Of a stretch of DNA of 40,000 nucleotides, positions 16,906 to 39,520 are shown in pieces (within the stretch, counting starts at the first letter, position 1; each line of letters begins with the position of its first letter). The DNA lies in assembly GCF_002866065.1 (NCBI RefSeq), contig NZ_LNJZ01000008.1, positions 106,346 to 146,345 on the forward strand, read 5' to 3'. A program made the translations under genes and the position numbers. This stretch comes from Thiopseudomonas denitrificans (GTDB lineage: Bacteria; Pseudomonadota; Gammaproteobacteria; Pseudomonadales; Pseudomonadaceae). The notes below the pieces were generated by a model. That model was not told the DNA's origin, ran no database searches, and was given only the letters and a program-made list of their open reading frames with translations.

Positions 16906-16968
16906 AGCTTTCTAGCGTGTCCGCGTATCGGTCAACCACCTTGGTAGCCGATACCGTGTAAATCCCGC

Positions 16969-17271
16969 CTAGCGCCCTTTCAGATGCCCTGCTGGGGTCA
17001 TACGTTGGTGCAGCACCGCAAACACCACCAGCTGATTCTTCTCCAACCTGTAGTAGAGCATGTGGCTGCCGTACGGAAAGCTGAACACCCCGCCGTCTAC
17101 ATCCTGCCTGGCCAGCCCCTGAGCAGGAAACTCAGCAAGCAGCCTGATAGTGCTCTGCATACCTTCGAGGTACTTTCTGGACTGTTCCTGCCCCCACTGC
17201 TGCACGGTATAACGACGAATTGCCGTTAAATCCTGCTGAGCATCACGGGTTAAACGAAAAGCCGCTGCCAT
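16969..17271 (-). CDS. parE: type II toxin, ParE/RelE family
   Basis: 100-aa ORF beginning FRLTRDAQQDLTAIRRYTVQQWGQEQSRKYL. Its start overlaps the stop of the upstream antitoxin by 1 nt (TGATG). Confidence 0.8.
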   Translation of the reverse strand: MAAAFRLTRDAQQDLTAIRRYTVQQWGQEQSRKYLEGMQSTIRLLAEFPAQGLARQDVDGGVFSFPYGSHMLYYRLEKNQLVVFAVLHQRMTPAGHLKGR

Positions 17272-17537
17272 CAGTCATCGTTTCCTTGCAAGAGCTGGTC
17301 AAAGAACTGGCCGCCATCAACGGTATCCCCTGCCGCGATCTGCTCCCTCGCCCGCTCCGCCCTCAAACGCAATAACTCCAGCTTCAGTTCATCCGTACTC
17401 ACAAAATCCTCGGACGATACCAATACTGCCACCGGCTTGCCGTGCTTGCTGATGTGTACGGGCTCTCGCTGAGACATCAGCAATACCTCACCAAATTTCG
17501 TTTTTGCTTCGTTTGCTGTCATTACAGGTCTAGACAT
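17271..17537 (-). CDS. type II antitoxin, Phd/YefM family
   Basis: ORF 17271..17567. The likely start is the ATG at 17537 or 17522. It reads MTANEAKTKFGEVLLMSQREPVHISKHGKPVAVLVS and is translationally coupled to parE. Confidence 0.75.
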   Translation of the reverse strand: MSRPVMTANEAKTKFGEVLLMSQREPVHISKHGKPVAVLVSSEDFVSTDELKLELLRLRAERAREQIAAGDTVDGGQFFDQLLQGNDD

Positions 17538-17709
17538 TGCACACCTCGCCCTAAACGCTCGATTCATTCATATCGAATGATTTGACCAATTTAAACCAAG
17601 CCTACCACGTCTCTCGGCCAACCGTCGCTCCGGTTTATCTTATTCAAAAAAATTACAGTCACACATTACTGTCATGACGATGACGTCATCATCCATTGGA
17701 GTCTTGATC

Positions 17710-18018
17710 ATGACAGTACGATGCCCACATTGCGGCTCAACAAACACACACCAATCATCCAGCATCACCACAACCACTGCGGGTGCCGGAGCGATAGGTG
17801 GCATAGCCACAGCCGTTTCCAAAACCCTCGGCAAAGGCATTCCTGCCGGTGGGGCCGTTCAGTTTGCTGCCGGAATCATCATCAGCAGTATCTTCTCTGG
17901 TTTGGCAGGCACCCTGCTTGGGGCCAAAGTCGGCTCAGAGCTGGAGCGTTCCATGCCGCCCAAGCATCACTGCAATCAGTGCGGCCACAGCTTTACCTCA
18001 ATGAAACAACTCAGCTAA
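17710..18018 (+). CDS. small protein: split zinc ribbon flanking a glycine-zipper hydrophobic core
   Basis: Part of ORF 17674..18018, trimmed to the ATG at 17710 (GGAG 9 nt upstream). CPHCG lies at the N-terminus and CNQCGH near the C-terminus. About 75 Gly/Ala-rich residues lie between them (GAGAIGGIATA, GLAGTLLGAKVG). Confidence 0.6.
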   Translation: MTVRCPHCGSTNTHQSSSITTTTAGAGAIGGIATAVSKTLGKGIPAGGAVQFAAGIIISSIFSGLAGTLLGAKVGSELERSMPPKHHCNQCGHSFTSMKQLS

Positions 18019-18035
18019 TCATAAGGAGAAACCCC

Positions 18036-19004
18036 ATGGCTCATTTAGTCGAACAGATGGCCTATGCCGGTGATACACCTTGGCATGGGTTAGGCAATCA
18101 ACTCTCGCCCAAGCAACCCCTTGAGGTCTGGCGGCGGGAAGCCGGGATGGATTGGGAAATCCTTGATAGCCCGGTTCACTTCAAGTCAGAAGTGCACGGC
18201 CCTTTGGGTGCCATTCATACATTCCCTGAACAACGTGTCCTCTACCGCTCAGATACCAAAACGGCTCTGTCGGTAGTGTCCAATCGTTATCAGGTGGTAC
18301 AGCCCCGTGATGTGATCGAGTTCTATCGTGACCTGACCGAGGTATCCGGGTACGAACTGGAAACAGCGGGCGTGCTCAAAGGCGGACGCAAGTTTTGGGC
18401 GCTGGCACGTACCGGCCTGGACTTCGCTTTGAAAGGCAAAGATCAGGTGAACGGCTATCTGCTCCTGGCAACGTCCTGTGACGGCACCATGGCCACCACC
18501 GCAACACCGACCACTGTGCGTGTGGTGTGCAACAACACCCTGACCGTGGCCATTGATGGCGCACCCCGTGCCATCAAGGTTCCACACAACACGATCTTCC
18601 AGCCTGATGTGGTAAAGCAGGATCTGGGCATTGCCGTTTCACAATGGGACGACTTCAAGTACCAGATGCGCCTGCTCTCTCAACGCAAAGTCCGCTGGAA
18701 GGAAGCCATGGCCTACTTCATGGATGTGGTATGCGACATTGATGAAGAAGCCCCAGTACCTGAAAAGATCCCCAACGAACGTGGCCTCAAGCGGGTTCAG
18801 GATCTATTTGATGGTGCTGGTCGTGGTAGCGATCTGGAGTCAGCCCACGGGACGGCCTGGGGCATGCTCAGTGCAGTGACCGAATACGTTGATCACCATC
18901 GGCAAGCTCGCAATAACGATTACCGGCTGGATTCTGCCTGGTTCGGTAACGGTGCGCTGATGAAGCAACGTGCGCTGGATTCTGCGCTGCGCTTGGTTGC
19001 TTAA
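18036..19004 (+). CDS. DUF932 domain protein (phage/plasmid-like, YfjQ type)
   Basis: Part of ORF 17721..19004, trimmed to the ATG at 18036, which is preceded by AAGGAGA. MAHLVEQMAYAGDTPWHGLGN is the usual DUF932 N-terminus. It also contains GGRKFWALA and LLATSCDG. Confidence 0.75.
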   Translation: MAHLVEQMAYAGDTPWHGLGNQLSPKQPLEVWRREAGMDWEILDSPVHFKSEVHGPLGAIHTFPEQRVLYRSDTKTALSVVSNRYQVVQPRDVIEFYRDLTEVSGYELETAGVLKGGRKFWALARTGLDFALKGKDQVNGYLLLATSCDGTMATTATPTTVRVVCNNTLTVAIDGAPRAIKVPHNTIFQPDVVKQDLGIAVSQWDDFKYQMRLLSQRKVRWKEAMAYFMDVVCDIDEEAPVPEKIPNERGLKRVQDLFDGAGRGSDLESAHGTAWGMLSAVTEYVDHHRQARNNDYRLDSAWFGNGALMKQRALDSALRLVA

Positions 19005-19059
19005 CCCTCTCCCAACCCTGCGTTTTACCCCCAATATTCAACTGAAACTGGAGTGCATT

Positions 19060-20061
19060 ATGGAAGCTCATAAATTGCAGCCTACGGCTGTGCCTTATCG
19101 TGCGCTACGTCTGGTGAACACCAAGGACATGGAGCGTGAAGAATGGCTGAAAATCCGCAAACAAGGCATTGGCAGCTCGGATGCTGCAGCGGCTATCGGT
19201 CTTAACCCTTACAAGTCACAACTGGAGCTCTGGATGGAGAAAACCGGGCGTGACAAGGAGCTACCCAAGCCTGACCCGGATGACGATACAGCCCCTGTGT
19301 TTTGGGGAACCGTCCTGGAGCCGATTGTGGCTGTGCAGTATGCCAAGAAGACGGGAAACAAGGTGCGGCGCATCAATGCCGTACTGCAACACCCTGACCC
19401 GGACTTGCACTGGATGCTAGCCAACATCGACCGTGAAGTTAACGGAAGCCCGGAAGTACAGATCCTGGAGTGCAAAACGGCAGGCATTAACGGGGCTCGC
19501 CTATGGAAGGAAGGCGTTCCCGAGTATGTACAGGTGCAGGTCATGCACCAACTGGCTGTGACAGGCAAGCAGGCCGCTGATGTGGCCGTGCTGATTGCCG
19601 GGCAGCAGCTGGAAGTGTTTCGTATTGACCGTGATGAAACCATGATTGCCCAGCTCATCGAGCTGGAAAAGCAGTTCTGGCATTACGTTGAAACGGATAC
19701 GCCACCGCCTGCTGACGGCTCTGCATCGGCTGATCAGGCACTGCGTTGCCTCTTCCCACGGGATGATGGCGAAGTTCTCGATCTTACGGACAACCCTGAA
19801 CTCAACCAAGCCTACGAAGAACTGAAGCAGATTCGTCGTGAAATTGCCGAGCAGGAAAAACTGGAAGCGTCCCTCAAACAAAAGCTGCAACAAGCCATGG
19901 GCGAAGCGTCCAAAGCTGTATTTACCAGTGGCTTTGTTACCTGGCGTAAAGCCAAGGACAGCCTGACGTTCAACAGCTCTGCCTTGCTCAAGGACTTGCC
20001 TCATCTTCAACAGAAGTACCAAGAGCTGCGTAAAGGCAGTAGACGTTTCTTGATCAACTGA
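19060..20061 (+). CDS. YqaJ-like viral recombinase-domain exonuclease
   Basis: Part of ORF 18970..20061, trimmed to the ATG at 19060. It has REEWLKIRKQGIGSSDAAAAIGLNPYKSQLELW, and the PD-(D/E)xK-like core is ILECKTA. Confidence 0.75.
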   Translation: MEAHKLQPTAVPYRALRLVNTKDMEREEWLKIRKQGIGSSDAAAAIGLNPYKSQLELWMEKTGRDKELPKPDPDDDTAPVFWGTVLEPIVAVQYAKKTGNKVRRINAVLQHPDPDLHWMLANIDREVNGSPEVQILECKTAGINGARLWKEGVPEYVQVQVMHQLAVTGKQAADVAVLIAGQQLEVFRIDRDETMIAQLIELEKQFWHYVETDTPPPADGSASADQALRCLFPRDDGEVLDLTDNPELNQAYEELKQIRREIAEQEKLEASLKQKLQQAMGEASKAVFTSGFVTWRKAKDSLTFNSSALLKDLPHLQQKYQELRKGSRRFLIN

Positions 20062-20085
20062 ATCAGCACCTATCACACAACACAG

Positions 20086-20131
20086 CATAAGCCCCCCAGC
20101 CGCGCCATGCAGCTGGGGGGCTTATGCGTTT
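20086..20131 (+). terminator. strong hairpin after the YqaJ-like gene
   Basis: Perfect 15-bp stem CATAAGCCCCCCAGC (20086-20100) pairs with GCTGGGGGGCTTATG (20112-20126). Only a weak T-tract follows (CGTTTGGG). Confidence 0.6.
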
Positions 20132-20143
20132 GGGAGAAAGAAA

Positions 20144-21109
20144 ATGCTCAAAGGTTTAGCTATCACACCGCCTGTCGCCGGGCGGATTACGATTGGTCGT
20201 GTCGTTGAAAAGAACGGTAAACGGCTGCCAGAAAAAGATGATCAATTCACTATCACCACGCAAATCCAGCATCGTCTGGAATGGTTGCTTCATCCGTTGA
20301 ATCTGACACTGCGTGGTTCCAATCAGGAGGAAAAGCTGCGGCGTATTCCTATTCGGTTCATGTTCAACGATCCATCGTTAAATTTCCGTGCTGACTACAG
20401 TCTGTTTGATCGCAGCAGCGGCAGGCCCATGTGTGTTGGGGACGGGGACACCTGCAAACGCATGACCAACGAAGGTCTGCAAAACCTGCCCTGCCCCGGT
20501 GCGGATCTTTGCCCACTGGGTCAGCATGGTGGCTGCAAGCCCTATGGTCGGCTGACAGTGCAGATTGATGACGGGGAGAACACCGACAGCTTTATTTTTC
20601 GCACAACCGGCTTCAACAGTATTCGTACCCTATTCGCCCGGCTGCACTACTTCAGTGCGCTGTCCAACAACAAGCTAGCCTGCTTACCGCTGGAGCTACG
20701 GTTACGGGGTAAATCCACTCGAATGAGTCATGGAACAGCCATTTTCTATGCCGATATCACCCTACGCAGTGACATGAGCATGGAAGAAACGCTGATCGCT
20801 GCTAATGCCCTGCATGAACAACGACTGGCCGCAGGCTTTAACCAAGACGCGCTGGATGCAGCGGCTCGCCAAGGGCTGAATAACGGCACATTTGAGGATG
20901 ATGAAGATGATGTCGCCAGCTTGGTGGAAGAGTTTTACCCAGAACAGTCAGCTATTAGTGAAAAAATAACAAAAAACACCGGTGAACGTCTGCTCCAAAC
21001 CACCAACAATCTGGCTGCCAAGCTGGAACACAAAGTACGCAGCCAAGCAGACCAAAGGCATCTGCCTGCCCAACCAAGCAACCCCGCTAACGGTGAGGCT
21101 CAGCCATGA
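20144..21109 (+). CDS. hypothetical Cys-rich protein (321 aa), possible recombination partner of the YqaJ exonuclease
   Basis: ORF with the Cys cluster CVGDGDTCKRMTNEGLQNLPCPGADLCPLGQHGGCKPYG and an acidic tail (FEDDEDDVASLVEEF). No family is confidently recognised. Only its position after yqaJ suggests a role. Confidence 0.5.
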   Translation: MLKGLAITPPVAGRITIGRVVEKNGKRLPEKDDQFTITTQIQHRLEWLLHPLNLTLRGSNQEEKLRRIPIRFMFNDPSLNFRADYSLFDRSSGRPMCVGDGDTCKRMTNEGLQNLPCPGADLCPLGQHGGCKPYGRLTVQIDDGENTDSFIFRTTGFNSIRTLFARLHYFSALSNNKLACLPLELRLRGKSTRMSHGTAIFYADITLRSDMSMEETLIAANALHEQRLAAGFNQDALDAAARQGLNNGTFEDDEDDVASLVEEFYPEQSAISEKITKNTGERLLQTTNNLAAKLEHKVRSQADQRHLPAQPSNPANGEAQP

Positions 21110-21267
21110 AGAAACAATCAAAACCGGCCCTGCCCCTAACCTGTATCCACTGTAAACAAGCAGTGGCCATCCCTGATTTTGTTAAGCCGGGCCAAGTCTG
21201 GGTAGGCACATGCAGCAACGGGCACAAGGCACTGTATAGCTGCCCTGCACCCCACGAAACTCAATAA
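21106..21267 (+). CDS. small zinc-ribbon-like protein (53 aa)
   Basis: Below the ORF-track size cutoff. Its ATG at 21106 overlaps the upstream TGA (ATGA coupling). The translation is MKKQSKPALPLTCIHCKQAVAIPDFVKPGQVWVGTCSNGHKALYSCPAPHETQ. A terminator follows. Confidence 0.5.
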   Translation: MKKQSKPALPLTCIHCKQAVAIPDFVKPGQVWVGTCSNGHKALYSCPAPHETQ

Positions 21268-21284
21268 ACACTTGCCCCCATAAC

Positions 21285-21310
21285 AGCCGCCCAACCGAGG
21301 CGGCTTTTTT
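21285..21310 (+). terminator. rho-independent terminator
   Basis: Stem AGCCGCC (21285-21291) pairs with GGCGGCT (21299-21305), then TTTTTT. Confidence 0.8.
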
Positions 21311-21326
21311 ATATCTGGAGAAAACC

Positions 21327-21827
21327 ATGCAATATCACAAACTGAAATCTGGCCAAGAGCCCGGCACCTACATCATGGAAAATACCTTAGTCACCGAGGA
21401 GGATATTCTGACCATCGCAAAACAGCTGTCACGCAAACGCCTAAGCCGTGGCCGGGCAATTACCAACGCAACCGATGTCAAGGAACACTTACGTAATCTG
21501 ATGCACGAGTACGAAAGCGAAGTCTTTGCCATTTTGCTGCTTGATACCAAACATCGCATCCTGGCCTTCAAGGAGCTCTTCTACGGCACGATTGACGGAG
21601 CCTCGGTCTACCCGCGTGAAATCGTCAAACTGGCCTTACAGCACAACGCAGCGGCTGCCATACTGGTGCACAACCATCCATCCGGTGATTCAACCCCAAG
21701 TCAAGCCGATAAGCTGCTGACCAAGCGACTAAAAGAGGCTTTGGGGCTGGTTGATGTTAGGGTGCTGGACCATATCGTGGTGGGGACAGAAGGGGCTACG
21801 TCCATGGTGGAGTATGGATGGATGTAG
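21327..21827 (+). CDS. RadC-like JAB domain protein (island copy, short N-terminus)
   Basis: 166-aa ORF containing [17 protein letters not shown] and HNHPSGDSTPSQAD. It ends SMVEYGWM, like the chromosomal radC. Confidence 0.85.
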   Translation: MQYHKLKSGQEPGTYIMENTLVTEEDILTIAKQLSRKRLSRGRAITNATDVKEHLRNLMHEYESEVFAILLLDTKHRILAFKELFYGTIDGASVYPREIVKLALQHNAAAAILVHNHPSGDSTPSQADKLLTKRLKEALGLVDVRVLDHIVVGTEGATSMVEYGWM

Positions 21828-21835
21828 CAAGAAAC

Positions 21836-21871
21836 AAACCCAGCACTTTCTGTTGCTGGGTTTATTTTTTT
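21836..21871 (+). terminator. rho-independent terminator after island radC
   Basis: Stem AAACCCAGCA (21836-21845) pairs with TGCTGGGTTT (21854-21863), followed by a T-rich tract. Confidence 0.8.
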
Positions 21872-21920
21872 GCTTCGACTGTGCTTGGTTTAGAGTGTAG
21901 CGGTCTAATACCCATGTAAG
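21871..21920. other. attC-like remnant at the distal end of the cassette array
   Basis: Shares GCGGTCTAATAC plus flanking similarity with the site upstream of aadA1, in inverted orientation (about 35 of 50 aligned columns by hand). It contains a GTAAGC box resembling GTTAAGC. Confidence 0.3.
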
Positions 21921-21996
21921 CGAGAATAGACGCCACAGAGAGGTGTTTATAAAAGCAGGGGCTAATCACTAACAACACAGATGTCGTCCTCCTATA

Positions 21997-22420
21997 TCAG
22001 GATAGTTGTCACTATATTTAGCCTCAAGCAGCCTGTTGTTTCAGTCTTTTTTCCGGATTCAGTGCCACAGGTCCAACCGGCTGACAACTTGTAACCGAGC
22101 GAGAGCATCAATGAGCCGGGTTGGCCAGTTTGGCCTGTTCCGCACCGCTTTGCCCTGAGCTAACAGTGCCTTATCTTTGCGCTGATGACGTTGTGCAGGT
22201 GTAACAAAGTTAATCTTGCTGTAACGGTGCCCGTTATTTTACCAGCGTATAAAATATTCACTTCAGCCAGCACAGACGTTTAAGGGCCATTGTGGGCGGT
22301 ACCTCAACACCCATCGATAAACGCCTTATCATTGCTGACTCAGGCGCGGCTGCATGACAGCTCATCGCAGATACCTTTTACCGCCAGTCTGGTGAAATTT
22401 TTTTTGGAGGGGAGGTGACA
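21997..22420. mobile_element. 424-bp IS-derived or MITE-like element with 16-bp perfect terminal inverted repeats
   Basis: TCAGGATAGTTGTCAC at 21997-22012 has its exact reverse complement at 22405-22420. The interior holds only stop-riddled fragments, for example a minus-strand reading KINFVTPAQRHQRKDKALLAQGKAVRNRPNWPTRLIDALARLQ. No target duplication is seen. Confidence 0.45.
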
Positions 22421-22492
22421 ACTATCCTGACAGAGGGGGGCTTTAGCCGGTCCCGAGTGAGCGAAGCGAGCGACTTGAACCACTTGTTAAGC
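22421..22492 (-). other. attC of cassette 1 (5' half; interrupted by the 424-bp element)
   Basis: The minus strand reads GCTTAAC AAGTGG TTCAAGTC... starting 7 nt after the ORF stop. The inverse core site fits RYYYAAC. The expected GTTRRRY partner is missing before 22421. A candidate GTTAGTG lies at 21967-21973. Confidence 0.5.
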
Positions 22493-22499
22493 GTGCTCT

Positions 22500-23525
22500 T
22501 CAGTAATCGCATATACCTCTTAGGATTTTTCGCCTAGGCAAAAAAAATTGATCTGTCAGTGTCCGCATATAGTTACTTATTTTTCTGTCGTCTTCGTTGA
22601 CGCCCCGCCAAGAGAATGGGACATTTGTGTTTTGCAAGCTCTCGATAAAAGTGACTTGTGTCAAGGCTAAAAATATCCTTGCATAATTTGAGGGCTCATT
22701 AAAATCGTTTCTTAACAAGTGAACCACGAGGTGACGATTAAAACCATTCAAGCTGCCGCCTCTATGACTTGACTTGTATAGTACACCGCTAAAAAATAGA
22801 CGAAAAGCATTGATAACATCACATTGGGGATTGGTATGCGTAAAGAAATCAATCTCTACTTGTTTGTTATATCCTTTTCCGGGGTGCCATACATATTGGG
22901 ATAAGCGGCCTCTGCCCCATGTCAAGATTAATTCTTTGAGGCCTTTTTCAAATTCTGCTGCACTAACATTAGATGGATCTTTGTTAAGCACCTTTCTCTG
23001 GATGTTCCTTAAGCCGGCCTCAAATACAGGGAACAAGGACATGATCGCAATATGATCAAGCCCTAAATAATAGGCCTCGATCGACTCAAAGATGATTGTT
23101 TTATACTCGCTGAAGGATTCGCTTGCGCAGAGATATTTATTGAAGTATGCGGCTGCAATTTCTGAAGTGAATGTTTCGTGCAGCCATAAGTTTGCTTCAT
23201 TGAGTGGTTTTTGTGAATTCTGTATGCGATGAATGTCTTTTACTAAAGTTCCTTCGCCTACATAGAGGGGTACAGGTATTGCTAAATCTAGCATTCGCTC
23301 TTGCAGGCCAGTAACACGCCCCCATCGGCTATTTAAATATCGTATTGGTCGCTCAGTTACAAAACATAATCCTTCATCCGTCTGGATTGAAAAGCCATTT
23401 CTTCCGATGTTAGAGGCTGTGACTTCAACCTCAATAGAGTTGCACTTCCTGAATGCACTCTGAATTTGCTCGATTGTGAGCTTTGGTTGCCGGCAAAGTT
23501 TTCTTAATGTGTTCTCATACTTCAT
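22500..23525 (-). CDS. cassette-borne hypothetical protein (341 aa)
   Basis: AT-rich ORF bounded by attC core sites. It contains the Rx4H-type motif FNRHLVVH. No family is recognised. Confidence 0.7.
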   Translation of the reverse strand: MKYENTLRKLCRQPKLTIEQIQSAFRKCNSIEVEVTASNIGRNGFSIQTDEGLCFVTERPIRYLNSRWGRVTGLQERMLDLAIPVPLYVGEGTLVKDIHRIQNSQKPLNEANLWLHETFTSEIAAAYFNKYLCASESFSEYKTIIFESIEAYYLGLDHIAIMSLFPVFEAGLRNIQRKVLNKDPSNVSAAEFEKGLKELILTWGRGRLSQYVWHPGKGYNKQVEIDFFTHTNPQCDVINAFRLFFSGVLYKSSHRGGSLNGFNRHLVVHLLRNDFNEPSNYARIFLALTQVTFIESLQNTNVPFSWRGVNEDDRKISNYMRTLTDQFFLPRRKILRGICDY

Positions 23526-23541
23526 TTGCGGGCTTCCAATC

Positions 23542-23631
23542 GCTTAACGCCGCACACAAGGGCGGCCAAATAAGTGTAGCGTTTTGGCTGTCCCAGCGAC
23601 CAACGGGAGCGATTGCTGTGCCTTGTTAGGC
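23542..23631 (-). other. attC of cassette 2 (90 bp)
   Basis: The minus strand runs from GCCTAAC (whose TAA is the stop of the 166-aa ORF) to GCGGCGTTAAGC. The ends fit RYYYAAC and GTTRRRY. Confidence 0.7.
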
Positions 23632-24126
23632 TTCACTATCGCCAACGAATTCAGTCACTTCTAATAGCTTATCCATTAACTCACGCATAATAACCCCCAG
23701 CTCATGAATTTCTTGGGTGTATTTTTGAATTTCATCGAAAACAAAGGTTTTACATTCTATTTTTGGCGCCTTTACTTTGATTGATTGCCTCAAGAATTGA
23801 AGCGTTTGATCATCGTTGATTTTAACCAAGTGTCCATGCAGCAACCAATTTCTATAATCTGCTAATTCTGACATCTGCTCGAAGTATGGTAAGTAAGGGC
23901 TTAAAAACTCCATCTGCTTTTTTTCTTTAACGCCCTCTATCAAGTATTTAAGCTTCGCCGAGAAGGTCTTCGGCCTGCGGTCCTCTAGTGATTTACCTTC
24001 AAAATAAATGTGAGTCAGCGAAATACATCCGTCCACAATTAGTTCAAGGTATGACCAGGAAAGAGTGAGCCTACCGATGCATTCAGCAATTGCTCGTCGT
24101 CTTTGAGTATTAATATCTTCGCTCAT
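23626..24126 (-). CDS. cassette-borne hypothetical protein (166 aa) with a HEPN-like RNxxxH motif
   Basis: The ORF starts 3 nt after core site GTTAGGC and its stop lies inside the next attC. The motif is LADYRNWLLHGH. Confidence 0.7.
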   Translation of the reverse strand: MSEDINTQRRRAIAECIGRLTLSWSYLELIVDGCISLTHIYFEGKSLEDRRPKTFSAKLKYLIEGVKEKKQMEFLSPYLPYFEQMSELADYRNWLLHGHLVKINDDQTLQFLRQSIKVKAPKIECKTFVFDEIQKYTQEIHELGVIMRELMDKLLEVTEFVGDSEA

Positions 24127-24128
24127 TA

Positions 24129-24188
24129 GCCTAACACATAAGTTAAGCCGCGCCGCGAAGCGGCGTCGGCTTGAATGAATTGTTAGCC
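24129..24188 (-). other. attC of cassette 3 (60 bp, aadA1-type)
   Basis: The minus strand reads GGCTAACAATTCATTCAAGCCGACGCCGCTTCGCGGCGCGGCTTAACTTATGTGTTAGGC. It is 54/60 identical to the aadA1 attC at 24760-24819. Confidence 0.85.
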
Positions 24189-24201
24189 ATCCTCAGCAGA
24201 T

Positions 24202-24750
24202 TCACCAGCCCCAATCCCGTTTGTCCGTGCGGTAAGTATTCGTCGTGCCTTGCAGCACTTGTGGATTGGCCTGGATGTAGTCCCACGCAACATCCGTGAT
24301 GTTGTGGGCGAAGCCTTCCACCAGACTTCCGGTTGAGGCGGAACGATAAATGATGCGGTTTGCCACCAAGCCTTGCACTACCCCATCATTGATTTTGAGC
24401 ATGTTGGCGCGGGTTTCTTTGGCGAAGTAGTACCGTAGTATTTGCTTCTCGTCTTCATTCAATGAAGATAGTTTTTTAACTATATGTCTCCGCACACGAC
24501 GCTCGAATATTCGTTCCAAAATCCATACCCAACAAGCTCCAATAGCAGAGACGCCCCAGAGAGTGGCACTAACAAGAAACGTCAGGCCGAGCCATTGGCG
24601 ATGCGTTTCTGCGAAAGCATTGATGCCGATCCGCTGGAGCCAAGCGTCCGGAAGAAACAATAAGGCGCCAGCAATGAGGGCGACCGCGATAAGGTAACGC
24701 GGCGCAAGCTTAAGGAACTCAAGGGCTGTTTTGGCGAAGTCGGCAAGCAT
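24202..24750 (-). CDS. cassette-borne membrane protein resembling superinfection exclusion protein B (SieB family)
   Basis: 182-aa ORF with two N-terminal TM segments (LKLAPRYLIAVALIAGALLFLPDAW and LGLTFLVSATLWGVSAIGACWVWIL) and a soluble C-terminal domain. The layout and N-terminal pattern match my recollection of Pfam SieB. Confidence 0.5.
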   Translation of the reverse strand: MLADFAKTALEFLKLAPRYLIAVALIAGALLFLPDAWLQRIGINAFAETHRQWLGLTFLVSATLWGVSAIGACWVWILERIFERRVRRHIVKKLSSLNEDEKQILRYYFAKETRANMLKINDGVVQGLVANRIIYRSASTGSLVEGFAHNITDVAWDYIQANPQVLQGTTNTYRTDKRDWGW

Positions 24751-24759
24751 ATGATTGAT

Positions 24760-24819
24760 GGCTAACGCTTGAGTTAAGCCGCGCCGCGAAGCGGCGTCGG
24801 CTTGAACGAATTGTTAGAC
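24760..24819 (-). other. attC (59-be) of the aadA1 cassette
   Basis: The minus strand reads GTCTAACAATTCGTTCAAGCCGACGCCGCTTCGCGGCGCGGCTTAACTCAAGCGTTAGCC. This is the canonical aadA1 attC as I remember it. Confidence 0.9.
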
Positions 24820-24820
24820 A

Positions 24821-25612
24821 TTATTTGCCGACTACCTTGGTGATCTCGCCTTTCACGTAGTGAACAAATTCTTCCAACTGATCTGCGCGCGAGGCCAAGC
24901 GATCTTCTTCTTGTCCAAGATAAGCCTGTCTAGCTTCAAGTATGACGGGCTGATACTGGGCCGGCAGGCGCTCCATTGCCCAGTCGGCAGCGACATCCTT
25001 CGGCGCGATTTTGCCGGTTACTGCGCTGTACCAAATGCGGGACAACGTAAGCACTACATTTCGCTCATCGCCAGCCCAGTCGGGCGGCGAGTTCCATAGC
25101 GTTAAGGTTTCATTTAGCGCCTCAAATAGATCCTGTTCAGGAACCGGATCAAAGAGTTCCTCCGCCGCTGGACCTACCAAGGCAACGCTATGTTCTCTTG
25201 CTTTTGTCAGCAAGATAGCCAGATCAATGTCGATCGTGGCTGGCTCGAAGATACCTGCAAGAATGTCATTGCGCTGCCATTCTCCAAATTGCAGTTCGCG
25301 CTTAGCTGGATAACGCCACGGAATGATGTCGTCGTGCACAACAATGGTGACTTCTACAGCGCGGAGAATCTCGCTCTCTCCAGGGGAAGCCGAAGTTTCC
25401 AAAAGGTCGTTGATCAAAGCTCGCCGCGTTGTTTCATCAAGCCTTACGGTCACCGTAACCAGCAAATCAATATCACTGTGTGGCTTCAGGCCGCCATCCA
25501 CTGCGGAGCCGTACAAATGTACGGCCAGCAACGTCGGTTCGAGATGGCGCTCGATGACGCCAACTACCTCTGATAGTTGAGTCGATACTTCGGCGATCAC
25601 CGCTTCCCTCAT
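24821..25612 (-). CDS. aadA1: aminoglycoside (3'')(9) adenylyltransferase AadA1, conferring streptomycin/spectinomycin resistance
   Basis: Part of ORF 24821..25624, trimmed to MREAVIAEVSTQLSEVVGVIERHLEPTLLAVHLYGSAVDGGLKPHSDIDLLV...EFVHYVKGEITKVVGK (263 aa). It matches the remembered AadA1 sequence along its whole length. The cassette boundary G|TTAAACATCATGAGG is intact. Confidence 0.95.
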   Translation of the reverse strand: MREAVIAEVSTQLSEVVGVIERHLEPTLLAVHLYGSAVDGGLKPHSDIDLLVTVTVRLDETTRRALINDLLETSASPGESEILRAVEVTIVVHDDIIPWRYPAKRELQFGEWQRNDILAGIFEPATIDIDLAILLTKAREHSVALVGPAAEELFDPVPEQDLFEALNETLTLWNSPPDWAGDERNVVLTLSRIWYSAVTGKIAPKDVAADWAMERLPAQYQPVILEARQAYLGQEEDRLASRADQLEEFVHYVKGEITKVVGK

Positions 25613-25681
25613 GATGTTTAACATGTATTAGACCGCCTTCCACATAAGCCAATCACCGTGAAGGCGGTATAACCCGATGCG
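25613..25681 (-). other. attC-like site abutting the 5' boundary of the aadA1 cassette
   Basis: The minus strand reads TTATACC-GCCTTC..(19-nt loop)..GAAGGC-GGTCTAA-TACAT-G|TTAAAC. The L boxes are 6/7 complementary, with a 9-bp stem ACCGCCTTC/GAAGGCGGT. The outer R box is degenerate (GTCGCAT). It is not the class 1 attI1 sequence. Confidence 0.4.
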
Positions 25682-26195
25682 ACTAAATCTCTATTTATCG
25701 ATTAAAGCATAGGGGTCAACCACTTACAAGACCATATTTTTAATAGATTATTTTCGCTTGACCTACCCCCAGCAGAACACTGCTTCTCCATATAGCAAAA
25801 GGAAATTGCTACGCCCCAGCCCTCTACCTCTAGTAAACGCTGAAAAAATACGCTTTCAAGCAATACCATCTACCACTCCACCAGCTGGTCAGCCTTAGTC
25901 GCCACGCCATATTTCACGCTGCTATCCAGAGCAGCGAGTTTTATCTTGCTCAGTCAGACGCAGGTCTTCAGTGAACAAACTACTTTTGGTTTCCGCCAAA
26001 GGCAATATCAGGCAATAGCTTGACGCAGACCCAGATGCAGCTGGAAATACAGGCCTAGTCGCCTGTGAGGCCAAGCATTTACGTGAAACGGCCAGTCCTG
26101 GATAAAAGCCAAACTGGCTTCTATCTAGTAAATCCTCACCTAAACGTGCACACTCTATCCCCATAATTTTCCACGATATTTTACAAGGAGTCGTT

Positions 26196-26747
26196 ATGTC
26201 TTCTCTGAGCCAGATCTTGCAAAGCTTTCGTGATCAAGCCGTATCCGAACGAGATAAAGGTACGGATTTTGAGCACTTGTGCATGGTGTACCTGCGTAAC
26301 GAGCCGATGTACAAAGATTTGTATCGGGAAGTCATGACCTATGGTCAGTGGGCAGAATCTGAAGGTCTTAGCCAGAAAGACACTGGGATTGATTTGGTTG
26401 CCATCACCTTTCTGGATGAGGTGCACGCAATCCAATGCAAAAACTATGCGCCGGAATACAAGATTGCCAAGTCCGACATCGACAGCTTTTTTACCGCATC
26501 AGGCAAAGCCACCTTCAGTCACCGGGTCATCATCACCACCACTAATAACTGGACCCAAAACGCCAGTGATGCCCTGGAAAACCAAAACCCTCCCGTCAGC
26601 ACAATCAAGCTTTCCGACCTTGAGCAGAGTCTAATCGACTGGGATCAGTTCAAAGTTGATGCCGCACCGGTATTCAAGGCCCAGAAAACACAACGTGAAC
26701 ATCAGGTTACCGCTAAAAGCGCAACCATCACTGTAGTAGCTGAATAA
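26196..26747 (+). pseudogene. N-terminal fragment of an Mrr-like endonuclease-helicase fusion gene
   Basis: The 183-aa ORF has the pattern FRDQAVSERDKGTDFEHLC, DTGIDLVA, AIQCKNY and DIDSFFTASGK, typical of the Mrr_cat_2-type N-terminal domain of large DEAD/DEAH helicase restriction proteins. It ends just after the REHQ motif where the helicase domain should begin. Confidence 0.55.
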
Positions 26748-26783
26748 AAACGGATGCCGACGTATTGGGCTGTATCAAACCCT

Positions 26784-26978
26784 CTACATAGCAACTCTGT
26801 TGCGGTCAGCTAGTCCAATCACCTTGATGTCCAGAGCTTTGCATTTTTCCAGCAAAGCCTGGTTATATTCGGCTTCGTCCATACCGTGATCATTGCCACG
26901 GTATGCACCGTTGTAACTCACAGGGTTAACCTGGAGGGCGCAACGCCAAAAGCGAGCATAGGTGTATTGATCCGACAT
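26784..26978 (-). pseudogene. 64-codon N-terminal fragment of a gene downstream of res (PHP-like N-terminus of a large ATPase family)
   Basis: The ORF reads MSDQYTYARFWRCALQVNPVSYNGAYRGNDHGMDEAEYNQALLEKCKALDIKVIGLADRNRVAM-stop. It is on the same strand as res and starts 31 nt after it. The pattern resembles N-termini of long PHP-domain/AAA ATPase proteins as I recall them. The ORF ends abruptly. Confidence 0.35.
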
Positions 26979-27009
26979 ACGATAGACCCCAATTCATGTT
27001 TTTTGAATG

Positions 27010-29598
27010 CTAATAGTCTTCAGCAATTGAGTCGCCAAACAAGCTGCCAGCATCTGCTGCTGCACCGATTTGCTTCCGTACCTCGGCTTTGGTCAGATCA
27101 AGCACACGGAGCTTACCCTTCACCTCGGCCACCGACTCGATACGGCGGTATGCACTGGCGTGGTTCTCTGCATACATCGCGAGGCCTTGCAGCTTGGGCA
27201 ATGCATCGGCTAGGTGGAGCCCGTGAGGATCTACAATGTCCGCGACGACTTGGCCATCTTGCTCGGCAAAGAAGATGAAATCCGGGCGCAGGATTTTGTA
27301 TTGGCCAGCTTCCTGGTAGGCGATCCCCAGTGAGGACTGCCCTGGCTGCTGCGGGTTGCGATACCAAGACGTGAAACCCGGCCTGGCCGCTTCAGTCTCG
27401 ACAACGGTACATTCCCAGTCATTCATGTCAGCCGGGTACTTGCCTGCTTGATCGCATAGCAAGTGACTATCCCAGACCGGGAAGACTCTCACCTTTCCAT
27501 TTTCGTTCGCCTTGGTCGCCTCATAACGGGCCTCTGGCTTCAGCAACCCTGCGTCTTGCGGCTCCGTGCTCATTTCGATGATCTGCCGATAGGATTCCCT
27601 TCGATCATCACTCAGGACCTTGATCTGCTCCCGATACTTGGACAACCAGGCCTTCGCCAGTTTGTCCGCCTCAGCATCGAAATAAGCCTGTGCCTCCATA
27701 ACCAGGCCCAAGCCAGCAACGGTTACGCGAGCTTCAACGATGGCTTCCAGGAATGCTTCCGGGTCATCATCCCGGTCGGCCTCCTGGCTTGCCAAATGGT
27801 CAACATAAGAATGGGCAATCGCAGGGCTGAAAATGCGCGCTGCACGGCGGTAGGCGTCGTCGATTACCGCCACGTCGGCATCTTCCCAGAACTGTTCCAG
27901 GCTGCGGCCCTTGCCCAGCATGTCCGCTTTCACGGTCTTGCCGTCCACAACCAACACGGACTGCCGCTTATCCTTGATCTTGGCTGCGTTGTCGGCCTGA
28001 AACTTATCCAGGGCTGCGTGCATTTCGGCATGGGCCAGCCTGCCTGCACCAGGGAGGATATCGTCGGACGCCAACTCATGGGCCAGCGCAGTCAACCTGA
28101 CAGCAGGCTTGGCACCACGCTGCGGGCGTGTCTGCGAAGGTAACGCCTCGAATGCCTCCCACACGGCAGGCGAAACAGCGGGATTTGGCACCACTTCAAT
28201 GTAGTCAATCAAGACGCGACCTGGCGTTGCCGCCTCGCTGCCGGTCGTCAACTCATCGACCACCTGCTCCACAGCCTTGCGATTGAATTTAGGCAGCAAG
28301 CAGTCCACCGCATTCAAGCGGTCATTCCCAGGGATACGGCGAGCCAGTGGCGACCGCACCAGACGGCCCAACAACTGCGTAATGTGGGTCTTGTCCTTGG
28401 CTGCACGGAAAGACACCATGACCTCGGCACGCGGGCAATCCCAGCCTGTGCTGATAGCATCCTTGGCAATCAAAACCCGCACCCAGGTTGACTCCTCGAC
28501 TCGCTGAGGCTCGATATAAGGCACGTCTCGGTTTCCGAACCGTTGGGTGGTGTGATCGCCAAAAACATGCGCCACACTGGCAGAAGGCAACTCAGGGTAG
28601 CGCTCAAAAATGGTATCCAGCGCCCGCCCGATTTCATCGGGGTCAGGCGTGTTGGGAACCTGCAAAACCATCAACGGCACGACAATATGGGCTTCCTGCT
28701 GTTGCTTGGAGTAAGCAGCCCAAGCAGCTGTGGACTCTTTCAACTTGTCGGTCGCTCGACGCACCAGAACGGTATCGAAGTCACCAACATTGTCCGGTAT
28801 ATCCAGCAGGATGGTGTCTTTGATAAGGCCTGACTCTTGAACCTTGGAGGCATCAACTTCAACATTGGGCAGCTTGATATGCTTGCCTGCCGACTCAATC
28901 GCCTTGTTGAATCGCTCCACCGTGGCCGAGATACCCCATACCGCTGGAATGCCGGGCACGCTGCCCACGCCATTGATAAGCCGTTGGACGATAGTGCTCT
29001 TGGCGTTCTGGCTAGCTGCCGTCTGTGTTCCCATGCCTCGGTGCGCCTCATCCAGCACGAGATACAGCGTCAAATCCGGGTCTTCAATGGTATTCTGTAT
29101 GGTGTCCCAAATGGTGTACGCACGCAGATCGGGGCGCATGTTGGGAAAAGTACCATCCAACTTGGCTGCCATTTCCTCAGGATCATGTCCGCGCACCAGA
29201 AGACTGTTTTTGCTGAGTTTCTGGGTATTGAGAAAGTAGATTTTCCCTGCCTGGAACTTCGGCCTGTTGAAGGTGTTTTCTACCACAACCAAGTCGGTAT
29301 AGTTGATACGGTCACTGACCTCGATGAAGCGAAAGCGTGTCTGCTCATTCAGCGATGGGTCGTCGCTGAACCAGATTACTACTGCGCCAGGGTCGGCATC
29401 AAAGCTGAACTCGTCGTCACCATGAAACAGCGCCTCGAACGTGGCAGCAGCCATTACCGTTTTACCCGCGCCAGTTACCGCTGTAAGCGAGAACGCAGTC
29501 CTGTCGGCCTCGCCATGCCAAAGGCGGCGAGCCTTGCCCAGGTTATTCAAGGAGTCGCGGACGGCGTCGCGCTGATAGTCTTTGAGCGTGAACTTCAT
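27010..29598 (-). CDS. res: Type III restriction enzyme, Res subunit (SF2 helicase-nuclease)
   Basis: 862-aa ORF with Walker A AVTGAGKTVMAA and DEAH box LVLDEAHRG. Its ATG lies 3 nt after the mod stop and is preceded by GGAGAA. Confidence 0.85.
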   Translation of the reverse strand: MKFTLKDYQRDAVRDSLNNLGKARRLWHGEADRTAFSLTAVTGAGKTVMAAATFEALFHGDDEFSFDADPGAVVIWFSDDPSLNEQTRFRFIEVSDRINYTDLVVVENTFNRPKFQAGKIYFLNTQKLSKNSLLVRGHDPEEMAAKLDGTFPNMRPDLRAYTIWDTIQNTIEDPDLTLYLVLDEAHRGMGTQTAASQNAKSTIVQRLINGVGSVPGIPAVWGISATVERFNKAIESAGKHIKLPNVEVDASKVQESGLIKDTILLDIPDNVGDFDTVLVRRATDKLKESTAAWAAYSKQQQEAHIVVPLMVLQVPNTPDPDEIGRALDTIFERYPELPSASVAHVFGDHTTQRFGNRDVPYIEPQRVEESTWVRVLIAKDAISTGWDCPRAEVMVSFRAAKDKTHITQLLGRLVRSPLARRIPGNDRLNAVDCLLPKFNRKAVEQVVDELTTGSEAATPGRVLIDYIEVVPNPAVSPAVWEAFEALPSQTRPQRGAKPAVRLTALAHELASDDILPGAGRLAHAEMHAALDKFQADNAAKIKDKRQSVLVVDGKTVKADMLGKGRSLEQFWEDADVAVIDDAYRRAARIFSPAIAHSYVDHLASQEADRDDDPEAFLEAIVEARVTVAGLGLVMEAQAYFDAEADKLAKAWLSKYREQIKVLSDDRRESYRQIIEMSTEPQDAGLLKPEARYEATKANENGKVRVFPVWDSHLLCDQAGKYPADMNDWECTVVETEAARPGFTSWYRNPQQPGQSSLGIAYQEAGQYKILRPDFIFFAEQDGQVVADIVDPHGLHLADALPKLQGLAMYAENHASAYRRIESVAEVKGKLRVLDLTKAEVRKQIGAAADAGSLFGDSIAEDY

Positions 29599-29601
29599 CC
29601 G

Positions 29602-31716
29602 TTATTCTCCGTTGGTAAAGCTGAAGTTGGTGAGATAAGACTCGTACAGGCGCACTGGCTCAACGCCATCGGGCAACCGCTTGGCGATTGCCTGGAAGCG
29701 GCGGTCATCGTCGGTAACGATATAGGCAATGCGTAACCCATCCACCTGGGCCAGTGCCTCGATAAAGGGTGTAGCTGCATCCACGTTGTTTAACAGTGCA
29801 TAGGCATCGGCCACCGCCCAGCCATCGGCGGGCAGCTTCTCAATACGACGCCCACGCGCCCCAGCGCGCAACCACAGCAGCGGCGCAACTCGGCTAAACG
29901 CCAGGTTGTGGCTGACCGATAACGGGGTTTCATACGTCAAGGTGAAAAACTCGGCGTTCTCCTCGAAGCCATCCGACATAGGGAATTCATCAGTAAACTT
30001 GTAATCTCCCTTAATCGGCTCACCGTCCGGTATCTTCCCGGTGATAGCCGCAGCAACGCGGGGTTTGGTGATGTAGTCGCAGATGCCTAATTTTTCCCAG
30101 CCCGGATCGCCAGGCCTTAAGCCTTCTTTACGCAATGCTTTCTGCTCGTCAGCGGCAACCTCATTATTTGTTACTGAAATGCACTGGCGGCGCCCACCAT
30201 CCTGCTTATTCAGGCGCATTACAGCGTGGGCCGTGGTACCTGAACCCGAAAAGAAGTCGAGAACTATGGCTTCGGATTTTTTGGCCACAAAGAAACGAAG
30301 TGCATCTTCGACAGCATAGAGCGATTTCGGAAAGGGAAATTTTCTATTCGGAATTAACGAGCGCAGCAATGTCGAGCCATACAAACCGGCGTCATGAGCG
30401 GGACTTGTCCAGACTGTTCGCGGCCTTGTTAATCGAACAGCCCCTTCCCTATGGCGAAGGATCAGCGCGCCTGACTCATCCTTCCCAAGAACATCAATCT
30501 CACCATTTTCAATGCGACGTTTTTCAGCCGCCCTAAGATAATTTACTGTAAATCGTGTCCCAGAGACATTAAGCCGAGCAGAGCCTTCTCGAAATGCAGC
30601 ACGAACTGATACTGAGCCAAGTTGCCATGTATTCTCAGAACCATCCGGACGAATAGGCCAAACGGCACTGACATCCGGGGATGGAGGTTTTACCTCTTCT
30701 CTGTCAGCGCCCAACGGAATTGTCTCGCCTACTGAGTGCAAAGAGCCATCGGATCTTACCCATATCGGATAAAACAAATTTGGTCGAGCTTCTCGTGAAC
30801 TATTCGATCCAGTTCTCATGAGAGAAAACCATATCGGGGAAGTATTCTTTACAGGAACCTCCTCCCCCGACATTGGGGCCGCCAACACACTCGACGATCC
30901 AAATTGGACGATAAATAGATACTCTTCAGTTCGCGTAAACTCATCAGGCCTCGCCACGCCAGCGCGAGGATTGATAACAGCAGTCACCATCTGAATGCGC
31001 GCATCTGGAAAGGTTTGCTCTAACAACAAACCCAACCGCAAATATTCTTTTTCGTCAATCGCAACTATTAACACCGAATCCACCGGATTCAGCAGCTCTT
31101 TCGCCACTAATAAGCGGCGCTCCATCATGGCCAACCATTTGCTGTGACGATATTGATCATCGCTTTCAACATAGTCGTTGTTATACTTCCAGTCCTTCGC
31201 CCCGGTGTTGTAGGGTGGGTCGATATAGATCGCATCAACATTGCCGCGATGGGTGTAGGTCAGCGCTTTAAGGACATGGTAGTTTTCACCATTAATTACT
31301 GTATGGCATGGCTTGTCTCCGCCACGCTGTACCTTGCCGGTACTGACTAGCCCTGGATAGATGGTGTCGCGGAACTCGGCCACCACCACCAGGTCATCCA
31401 GCGCTACGGTTTGGGTTTCGCTCTCTTCGGCACCTATTAACTCCAAAACAGCGGACTTCTTGGCTCTTTGGATACTCTTCACCTGCCACAGCCGCTGATC
31501 GCCCTTCTTGGTGGAACCACGCTCCGGCAATACGCGCACCTTGTCACCCTTCCGAATCGGTCGCAGCGGCAACTCTACCGCTTCTGGGCTATGACGCTCA
31601 AAGTTCAGTCCGAAGGGTAACCGTGACGACAGCATTTTGAACTCTCGATCCAGCTCGGCCCCTAACGCCGCGTCTCTGGCTTTTGCCTTGGCAATCAAAT
31701 CTGTCAGTCTGGACAC
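29602..31716 (-). CDS. mod: Type III R-M DNA methyltransferase, Mod subunit (N6-adenine, beta-class)
   Basis: Part of ORF 29602..31911. Motif IV IYIDPPYNTG precedes motif I DFFSGSGTTAHA. The start is uncertain. GTG at 31716 (VSRLTDLIAKAKARD, 19 nt after the recombinase stop) is preferred. The alternative ATG at 31635 is possible. Confidence 0.8.
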   Translation of the reverse strand: MSRLTDLIAKAKARDAALGAELDREFKMLSSRLPFGLNFERHSPEAVELPLRPIRKGDKVRVLPERGSTKKGDQRLWQVKSIQRAKKSAVLELIGAEESETQTVALDDLVVVAEFRDTIYPGLVSTGKVQRGGDKPCHTVINGENYHVLKALTYTHRGNVDAIYIDPPYNTGAKDWKYNNDYVESDDQYRHSKWLAMMERRLLVAKELLNPVDSVLIVAIDEKEYLRLGLLLEQTFPDARIQMVTAVINPRAGVARPDEFTRTEEYLFIVQFGSSSVLAAPMSGEEVPVKNTSPIWFSLMRTGSNSSREARPNLFYPIWVRSDGSLHSVGETIPLGADREEVKPPSPDVSAVWPIRPDGSENTWQLGSVSVRAAFREGSARLNVSGTRFTVNYLRAAEKRRIENGEIDVLGKDESGALILRHREGAVRLTRPRTVWTSPAHDAGLYGSTLLRSLIPNRKFPFPKSLYAVEDALRFFVAKKSEAIVLDFFSGSGTTAHAVMRLNKQDGGRRQCISVTNNEVAADEQKALRKEGLRPGDPGWEKLGICDYITKPRVAAAITGKIPDGEPIKGDYKFTDEFPMSDGFEENAEFFTLTYETPLSVSHNLAFSRVAPLLWLRAGARGRRIEKLPADGWAVADAYALLNNVDAATPFIEALAQVDGLRIAYIVTDDDRRFQAIAKRLPDGVEPVRLYESYLTNFSFTNGE

Positions 31717-31735
31717 GGAATTACTTCTCTCTTCT

Positions 31736-32308
31736 TTATTGATGGCGCGGTTGTACAACGCCGCAATGCTTATAAATCGTTGTTCTCGATACGCCGTAGT
31801 CACGGGCCACTTCGGCAACGCTGGTATTTGGACCGCGAAGCAATGCCTTGATCTGGCGTATCTGTTTTGCGTCCAGCTTTGGTTTACGACCACCTGCCCG
31901 GCCTCGGGCACGAGCTGCGGCCAGCCCGGCTTGAGTGCGCTCCCTGATCAGGCCACGCTCAAACTCAGCTAGCGCCGCAAATACATGGAAAACCAACTTG
32001 CCCGCCGCGCCGCCTGTCTCGATTTTTTCTGTCAAGCTCTCAAAGCCAATGCCTCGTTGATCAAGGTCAGCGATGATCTGCACCAGGTCAGGCAAACTGC
32101 GGCCAAGACGATCCAAGCGCCATACCACCAGCGTATCCCCAGCCCGTAGGGCCTTGCGGCACTGTTCAAGCTCTGGACGCACGGCGTTCTTGCCGCTGAT
32201 CGCTTCTTCGTAGATCACGCTGCACCCAGCCTGAGAAAGCGCATCGCGCTGCAACTCCAGGTGCTGGTCATCGGTCGATACGCGAGCGTACCCCATCCGT
32301 TGATTCAT
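31736..32308 (-). CDS. serine recombinase (resolvase/invertase family)
   Basis: 190-aa ORF with the catalytic motif MGYARVSTDDQ, then DTLVVWRLDRLGRS, and the C-terminal HTH VARDYGVSRTTIYKH. Confidence 0.9.
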   Translation of the reverse strand: MNQRMGYARVSTDDQHLELQRDALSQAGCSVIYEEAISGKNAVRPELEQCRKALRAGDTLVVWRLDRLGRSLPDLVQIIADLDQRGIGFESLTEKIETGGAAGKLVFHVFAALAEFERGLIRERTQAGLAAARARGRAGGRKPKLDAKQIRQIKALLRGPNTSVAEVARDYGVSRTTIYKHCGVVQPRHQ

Positions 32309-39458: not shown

Positions 39459-39520
39459 CTTGGCACCTGCCTGATTCATGCAAGGAGGTACCGGCAGCTG
39501 CCGGCACCCGCCCTGGCCGG

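Follow-up and report, generated by a model that had tools for sequence, protein, structure and literature searches.

The 40,000-nucleotide stretch of Thiopseudomonas denitrificans DNA analysed here (hereafter the window; NCBI RefSeq assembly GCF_002866065.1, contig NZ_LNJZ01000008.1, positions 106,346 to 146,345 of the forward strand) carries an integron cassette array within a chromosomal island. Four minus-strand open reading frames (ORFs), at 22500–23525, 23626–24126, 24202–24750 and 24821–25612, were confirmed exactly where an earlier reading, made from the letters alone, had placed them. They form a genuine four-cassette integron array in which aadA1 is followed by three non-resistance genes, encoding a SieB-family protein and proteins of 166 and 341 residues, and the earlier description of a clinical-type resistance cassette mixed with three non-resistance cassettes is correct. 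Upstream of aadA1 lie an attI recombination site and a short remnant of an integron integrase gene (intI). The components of the array are as follows, cassettes being numbered from attI:

25811–25827, plus strand: intI remnant of 17 nt, its start codon changed from ATG to ACG, with about five further codons
25622–25810, minus strand: attI and the conserved intI–attI intergenic segment of an unnamed integron class, attI core at 25622–25675
25701–25729, minus strand: promoter-like element (TTGTAA, 17 nt, TTTAAT) facing the cassettes, a candidate equivalent of the cassette promoter Pc
24766–25621, minus strand: cassette 1, aadA1, with ORF 24821–25612 and attC 24760–24819, in first position at attI
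24135–24765, minus strand: cassette 2, SieB family, with ORF 24202–24750 (182 residues) and attC 24129–24188
23548–24134, minus strand: cassette 3, 166-residue protein, possibly HEPN-like, with ORF 23626–24126, attC 23542–23631 and the stop codon in R″
22440–23547, minus strand: cassette 4, 341-residue protein, with ORF 22500–23525 and a truncated attC, of which R″, L″ and part of the loop are left (22439–22492)

Cassettes 2–4 each open with six bases that are exactly complementary, in reverse, to their own R″ box (start/R″ pairs TTAGCC/GGCTAAC, TTAGGC/GCCTAAC and TTAAGC/GCTTAAC, respectively), and the aadA1 cassette shows one mismatch in the same comparison. Such a match between start and R″ box marks a cassette as a linearised circle. 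In the 166-residue ORF the stop codon falls within the R″ core GCCTAAC, as had been noticed from the sequence, and cassettes 3 and 4 travel as units in other arrays.

Three complete attC sites, at 24760–24819, 24129–24188 and 23542–23631, span 1.3 kb. The first is the classical aadA1 attC and the second is 92% identical to it; the bottom strands of both fold into hairpins with a canonical R-box stem, an internal loop and a bulged L-box stem, with z scores of −3.95 and −5.03, respectively, and in each case none of 200 shuffled sequences was equally stable. The likeness between these two sites requires no duplication, since both the 5′ leader and the attC type are shared by a SieB-family homologue, 77% identical at the amino-acid level, in the ilvD-adjacent array of Xanthomonas cerealis. 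The third site adopts the canonical R-box / internal loop / bulged L-box arrangement at its minimum free energy, yet its z score is only −0.78. It is accepted as a real attC because cassette 3 is mobile and its similarity to other arrays ends at the cassette boundaries: this 587-bp cassette is ~97% identical in at least 10 metagenomic arrays with varying neighbours, and the similarity spans from 24135/24136 to 23535–23546, which are the G|TT cassette boundaries.

The fourth site (22421–22492) is half an attC. It is homologous to the attC of a gcu cassette beside qacEdelta1 in a Pseudomonas aeruginosa class 1 integron (L001), and to other attCs, and the homology to full attCs of the same family stops after GGCTAAAGCC near 22439. 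Alignment to the full attCs in L001 and L002 places L′ and R′ beyond this point, absent from the window copy, and no folding beyond that of shuffled sequences is seen (z +1.31). The claim that an attC delimits each ORF thus stands for the three complete sites, on homology, mobility and folding, but for the fourth gene only in part. One Logan contig stops at 22440, where the conserved part of this truncated attC ends, a hint of a further attC from that family.

General attC searches were less informative. A scan of the whole window at Rfam gathering thresholds gave no match, Rfam not having been confirmed to hold an attC family. A home-made scanner combining R″/R′ complementarity with DNA folding was set aside as unspecific (four matches in the window, two of them outside the array, against a shuffle mean of 1.3), and the variable centres of 13 independent attCs were unalignable by MAFFT, RNAalifold giving no consensus structure for them.

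The sequence-only reading had reported no attI or promoter region upstream of the array, having looked only for attI1 and the class 1 Pc. This does not hold: a non-class-1 attI, an intergenic segment and the first intI codons occupy 25622–25827, and by blastn positions 25619–25819 are 80–85% identical to related loci. The attI core holds an imperfect palindrome (hairpin z −3.09), and the crossover lies at ...ACATG|TT, between 25622 and 25621. Scanning the attI pattern GGAAGGCGNTCTAATACATGTT over one genome per GTDB species gave matches at 10 loci (L027–L036; for example attI at 2049–2070 of L029 and 2871–2892 of L035), each with a different sequence after G|TT. These are in Oligella ureolytica (two), Pelistega indica, a Pelistega metagenome-assembled genome (MAG), two Thiopseudomonas MAGs, an Alcaligenaceae MAG and a gammaproteobacterial MAG; the remaining two are short contigs binned, probably wrongly, to Firmicutes. 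In eight of the 10, a divergent intI lies ~170 bp from attI. Two metagenomic arrays found via cassette 3 (L017 and L020) have the same ...TGGAAGGCG.TCTAATACATG|TT start followed by other cassettes; together with the genome loci, an attI counterpart precedes different first cassettes in 12 other arrays. Judged by homology, 25622–25675 is the attI of a non-class-1 integron. The pattern had no match in viral contigs, and the 576 bp upstream of aadA1 had none in the plasmid collection. The upstream hairpin was also considered as the 3′ half of an attC, and this was rejected on the lack of an R″ box upstream, the attI-like L–R spacing and the adjacent intI in other genomes.

Homology to intact intI genes continues past attI and stops at 25819–25827, after codon 3 to 6, in alignments with L029, L030, L034 and L035, whilst blastn to L037 reaches 25827. 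Within the intergenic segment, the promoter-like element can be read in the same register in the aligned relatives, as TTGTAA-17-TATAAT in L029 and L035, with TCTAAT in L030 and TTTAAT in L033 and L034.

The rest of the integrase gene is missing. As the sequence-only reading had stated, there is no intI in the 40-kb window: tblastn queries of the cognate IntI and of plasmid-derived IntI1 and IntI2 gave best E-values of 0.28–0.9, and the sole tyrosine recombinase present is the P4-type island integrase (15697–16905), which is not an IntI. The cognate IntI is that of L029, which we count as a true integron integrase because it exceeds the TIGR02249 cutoff (396.7 vs 265 bits); it falls below the cutoff of the equivalog NF011946 (303 vs 435 bits), and is therefore not an equivalog of the integrase that NF011946 represents. 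Its identity to IntI1 is ~41% and to IntI2 48%, and the named proteins closest to it are chromosomal IntIs from Marinobacter and Alcanivorax (62–66%). DNA matches of the L029 intI in the plasmid collection are short and weak (~74% to intI3 and marine intI genes). On these comparisons, the integron class of the locus is unrelated to classes 1–3, and it appears to be unnamed; our literature search found no paper naming it or giving its attI sequence, and nothing on the accessions.

The intI–attI module of this class is 93–99.9% identical among most of the loci (Oligella, Pelistega, Thiopseudomonas and Alcaligenaceae), with L033 and L034 at 85–89%. Among the 10 genomes, L029 alone gives a full 322-residue IntI alignment; the others align over 300 (L036, without the first 22), 298, 282, 186, 170, 169, 91 and 0 (L033) residues, the 169-residue alignment being cut by the end of the locus, and L032 starts inside attI, so that intI is outside its coverage. 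With ~6 intI codons, the window lies near the extreme of this truncation series, in which attI and the intergenic segment are always kept. We would only tentatively suggest, at less than even confidence, that the unnamed class moves between bacterial orders, has captured a clinical cassette and repeatedly loses its integrase whilst keeping attI and promoter, leaving fixed expression platforms for resistance or phage-defence cassettes. The cassettes of L027–L036, L037 and L038 are, going by their ORF lists, apparently mostly of unknown function.

The aadA1 DNA is 99% identical to thousands of plasmid copies, with similarity that ends at the cassette boundary, and this boundary is exact. The protein scores 597.6 bits against the allele-specific NCBIfam model NF033126 (cutoff 587), and over 15,000 of the assembly collection's index blocks contain it unchanged. 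Plasmid and Escherichia coli matches are limited to the aadA1 cassette and its attC (~21% of the query), and the junction here differs from the other aadA1 contexts examined. The gene is predicted to confer streptomycin/spectinomycin resistance, and from the sequence of its junction the cassette appears to have been captured precisely at the non-class-1 attI.

The array is very probably the relic of a formerly complete integron, of an unnamed class, from which intI has been deleted; it can be assigned to a specific class outside classes 1, 2 and 3 because attI, ~190 bp of intergenic region and 17 nt of intI are retained. In the order of events that we infer, the cassettes would have been acquired by site-specific recombination at the array's own attI, the latest acquisition being the canonical clinical aadA1 cassette, placed precisely at ...ACATG|TTAAAC. 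A deletion would then have taken all of intI beyond about codon 6, leaving the stub fused to unrelated DNA beside a truncated type ISP restriction gene, and at the other end the last attC would have been cut by a rearrangement involving a 452-bp inverted-repeat element. What is left would be a fixed, operon-like array of four genes, probably expressed from the conserved promoter-like element; the array cannot rearrange itself. Cassettes 1–3 should in principle be excisable by an IntI acting in trans, whilst the fourth would be immobilised by its incomplete attC.

Several points weigh against this account. The 452-bp element has neither a target duplication nor known relatives that would show how the array was truncated; a simple deletion model also does not account for an inverted attI-like copy at 21873–21922. 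The element at 25701–25729 is a candidate promoter by a consensus-like match, and a promoter consensus scan, which requires A at position 2 of the −10 box, did not flag it. Finally, the intI search covered the 40-kb window; an intact intI of this or another class may lie elsewhere, and the missing part may have been translocated.

One alternative is a split integron, in which an inversion or translocation breakpoint at about codon 6 separated the array, attI and Pc from the rest of intI, which would survive, whether intact or not, elsewhere in the same genome and service the cassettes in trans. Rearrangement is listed among the origins of integrase-less arrays by Cury et al. (PMC4889954), and draft assemblies of the same strain give a further hint. 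The window is 100% identical to the complete chromosome CP051436.1, to two contigs of the draft SNYK01 and to Logan contigs of SRR7174962; the SNYK01 contigs break 92–94 nt inside both aadA1 cassette ends, at 24857 and 25528, and the Logan contigs (k=31) break ~30 nt inside the cassette ends, one of them stopping at 25593. Because breaks at fixed distances match the pattern of a cassette-sized repeat, they imply that a second aadA1 cassette lies elsewhere in the same genome in a different context, probably in another integron. This second copy is, however, more simply explained as a separate integron, possibly of class 1; a gene deprived of its first six codons and promoter would be non-functional, the start codon of the stub is already mutated, and the independent nested truncations of intI in other genomes indicate recurrent loss. 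A split integron is accordingly improbable. The repeated aadA1 cassette and attC are also of the kind that breaks draft assemblies, and intI might have been lost or misjoined whilst a repeat-rich region was assembled, a possibility that had been raised with the first description of the array. The junction of attI, intI stub and type ISP gene (25593–26747) is nevertheless read straight through, at 100% identity, in three assemblies (CP051436.1, SNYK01000005.1 and a Logan contig of SRR7174962), and the breaks fall inside aadA1, away from the stub; of the explanations considered, an artefact has the slightest chance of being correct.

A further alternative is that there was never an integron here, the cassettes having been placed at a non-specific GTT in the island by an integrase whose gene lies elsewhere. 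Secondary-site insertion by IntI is a documented process (cited in PMC4889954), and the lack of intI in the window would be expected. Against this, the ~200 bp that precede the first cassette show homology to the attI/intI 5′ region of bona fide integrons, the first intI codons included, and the G|TT junction is common to the 12 other arrays. A secondary-site origin is effectively refuted, with little more likelihood than an assembly artefact. Loss of intI from a complete integron is the favoured explanation.

The array had been described as resembling a cluster of attC sites that has no integron integrase (CALIN), defined as two or more attC sites on the same strand, clustered within 4 kb, with no intI nearby (Cury et al. 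2016, PMC4889954). Operationally the label is apt, since there are three attC sites in 1.3 kb on one strand, within a genomic island and with no intI nearby; the locus is nonetheless no orphan, having kept attI, a promoter-like element and an intI stub. It resembles CALINs in having one-strand attC sites less than 4 kb apart, in its small size (~4 cassettes) and in being chromosomal. Near 95% of CALINs there is no recognisable intI pseudogene, one being present near 5%, and resistance genes account for 31 of 1933 CALIN cassettes (PMC4889954). Unlike most CALINs, the locus has an origin that can be traced, through attI and an intI stub of 17 nt that would escape a pseudogene search, and its first cassette is a clinical resistance gene. 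Among the origins discussed in that work, the locus supports intI loss and excludes secondary-site insertion, and rearrangement keeps a small probability. CALINs are about as common as integrons (PMC4889954) and their origin is usually unknowable; here one origin, intI loss from a complete integron, is cleanly displayed, and the evidence for it is carried by attI and the intergenic segment, regions that standard tools look for in classes 1–3 only. The element is ordinary in kind, and it is the clarity with which its origin can be traced that is unusual.

The locus belongs to none of classes 1, 2 and 3, although it has features in common with the first two. With class 1 integrons carrying aadA1 (such as In2 of Tn21) it shares the aadA1 cassette and attC, at 99%, and an attI-proximal cassette expressed, here putatively, from an upstream promoter; truncation of intI is also known there, an example being the IS26-truncated intI1 in L011. 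Unlike class 1, it lacks attI1 and the 5′ and 3′ conserved segments (5′-CS and 3′-CS), no insertion sequence is visible at the truncation point, and the cognate IntI is 41% identical to IntI1. In class 2 (Tn7), similarly, an aadA1 array is stable with its cis integrase inactive, and IntI2 is the closest of the clinical integrases compared (48%); class 2, however, has a full-length intI2 pseudogene with an internal stop, located in Tn7, whereas here the gene is deleted and the array is in an island with a P4-type integrase. The ilvD-adjacent integrons of Xanthomonas offer another parallel, as the SieB-family cassette and its attC type match the X. cerealis array, and Xanthomonas chromosomal arrays tend to have inactivated integrases. 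Their attI and IntI lineage differ from those of the locus, and they are sedentary and species-specific.

The 182-residue product of cassette 2 matches the SieB family (PF14163) with an E-value of 4.1e-32 and 111.2 bits (cutoff 26) over profile positions 2–146 of 147. Its sequence reads as two hydrophobic segments and then a soluble domain, and NCBI names its relatives 'superinfection exclusion B family'; it is predicted to give phage exclusion. The 166- and 341-residue proteins have no match in Pfam or NCBIfam, and none of the three non-resistance cassettes has one in PADLOC or PHROGs. The AlphaFold2 model of the 166-residue protein is mostly helical (predicted local distance difference test score, pLDDT, 95), with no significant fold match in the PDB. 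An RNxxxH motif (R92 and H97) is invariant in an alignment of 45 relatives, four of which have sub-threshold matches to HEPN families of Pfam (E about 0.012–0.014). That this protein is a HEPN-type RNase is a reasonable but weak hypothesis. The 341-residue protein belongs to a conserved family found in Aeromonas, Pseudomonas, Vibrio and Enterobacter, and its model (pLDDT 88) retrieved nothing significant in fold searches of the PDB and BFVD. An 89%-identical copy of its gene is the first cassette of a different integron, L026 (1147–7160), and is followed there by an AAA_15/AAA_21 ATPase gene and a 283-residue partner, which resemble a defence-type pair.

Many mobile-integron cassettes of unknown function are reported to be phage-defence genes, and about one third of these encode membrane proteins (bioRxiv 10.1101/2024.07.02.601719). 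Since that work on bacteriophage resistance integron cassettes (BRiCs) finds many such cassettes to be defensive, a defence role would be the likeliest one, at the least for the SieB-family cassette. The array resembles BRiC-bearing integrons in placing cassettes of unknown function beside resistance cassettes, and its SieB-family protein, membrane-spanning by our reading of the sequence, recalls the transmembrane helices of about a third of BRiCs. It differs in that SieB is unmentioned in that work, and that the defence role of the three cassettes here is putative.

The presence of a canonical aadA1 cassette at an attI of a non-clinical class, as part of an island in the chromosome of a pseudomonad-like bacterium from the environment, is direct evidence of cassette exchange between clinical and environmental integrons. 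With the integrase gone, what is left would be a stable resistance and putative defence operon, from which cassettes 1–3 could be donated to any incoming integron. The locus also affords a glimpse of an integron class, unnamed and apparently mobile, in which loss of the integrase seems habitual.

Two further features lie at the distal end of the array:

21988–22439, no strand assigned: non-coding element of 452 bp, bounded by imperfect inverted repeats of 25 nt (22 of 25 bases), which adjoins the truncated attC and forms the distal boundary of the array
21873–21922, plus strand: diverged attI-like sequence, inverted relative to the functional attI and directly after the radC terminator

The 452-bp element contains no ORF of note and is similar in kind to a miniature inverted-repeat transposable element. 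The exact 16-nt cores of its repeats occur only twice in the window, and no copy was found in plasmids or E. coli genomes, nor in metagenome contigs searched for both cores at the right spacing. It is not a simple insertion into the last attC, because the missing half of that site is absent from the far side of the element. The attI-like sequence shares a 12-nt exact inverted match with the functional attI, and the local alignment score of 20 stands well above those of 300 shuffles (mean 9.9, standard deviation 1.5, maximum 15.5). It scores 17.5–22 against the attI of L029, L030, L033 and L034, and 16 against that of L037. The array is hence positioned between two convergent attI-like sites, of which the inverted one may be a relic of an older site or of an inverted duplicate; a 21-nt stretch of it (GCGGTCTAATACCCATGTAAG) had no exact match in metagenome contigs.

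On the other side, ~370 bp without a match lie 3′ of the intI stub and are followed, within 26196–26978, by two N-terminal gene fragments, one of 183 codons from a type ISP/IIG restriction-modification enzyme and one of 64 codons from a TrlF-like ATPase; the integron remnant thus sits among other broken genes. Beyond them are an apparently intact type III restriction-modification pair (res 27010–29598 and mod 29602–31911) and a serine resolvase (31736–32308), such that 26196–32308 constitutes a patch of the island in which defence genes are mixed with gene debris.

The proximal part of the island (15697–21827) begins at the P4-type integrase beside yicC, and carries a PhdYeFM/ParE pair and DUF932, YqaJ, Gp3-like recombination directionality factor and RadC genes. 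On the basis of its exo, radC and restriction genes, hotspot 3 of an SXT/R391 integrative and conjugative element, with a class 9 integron, had been suspected; this was rejected, as the integrase is of P4 type and beside yicC, and there is no tra gene among the scanned ORFs. In a Halopseudomonas MAG and further gammaproteobacterial MAGs (loci L039 and L044), integrases at least 90% identical occupy this yicC site; L039 is the one long locus seen with a yicC-site integrase, and its cargo differs. Further along the island, a 473-residue ORF without a family match (36354–37775) is located between genes for an ISL3-family transposase (34943–36301) and an ArsA-type ATPase (38454–39527).

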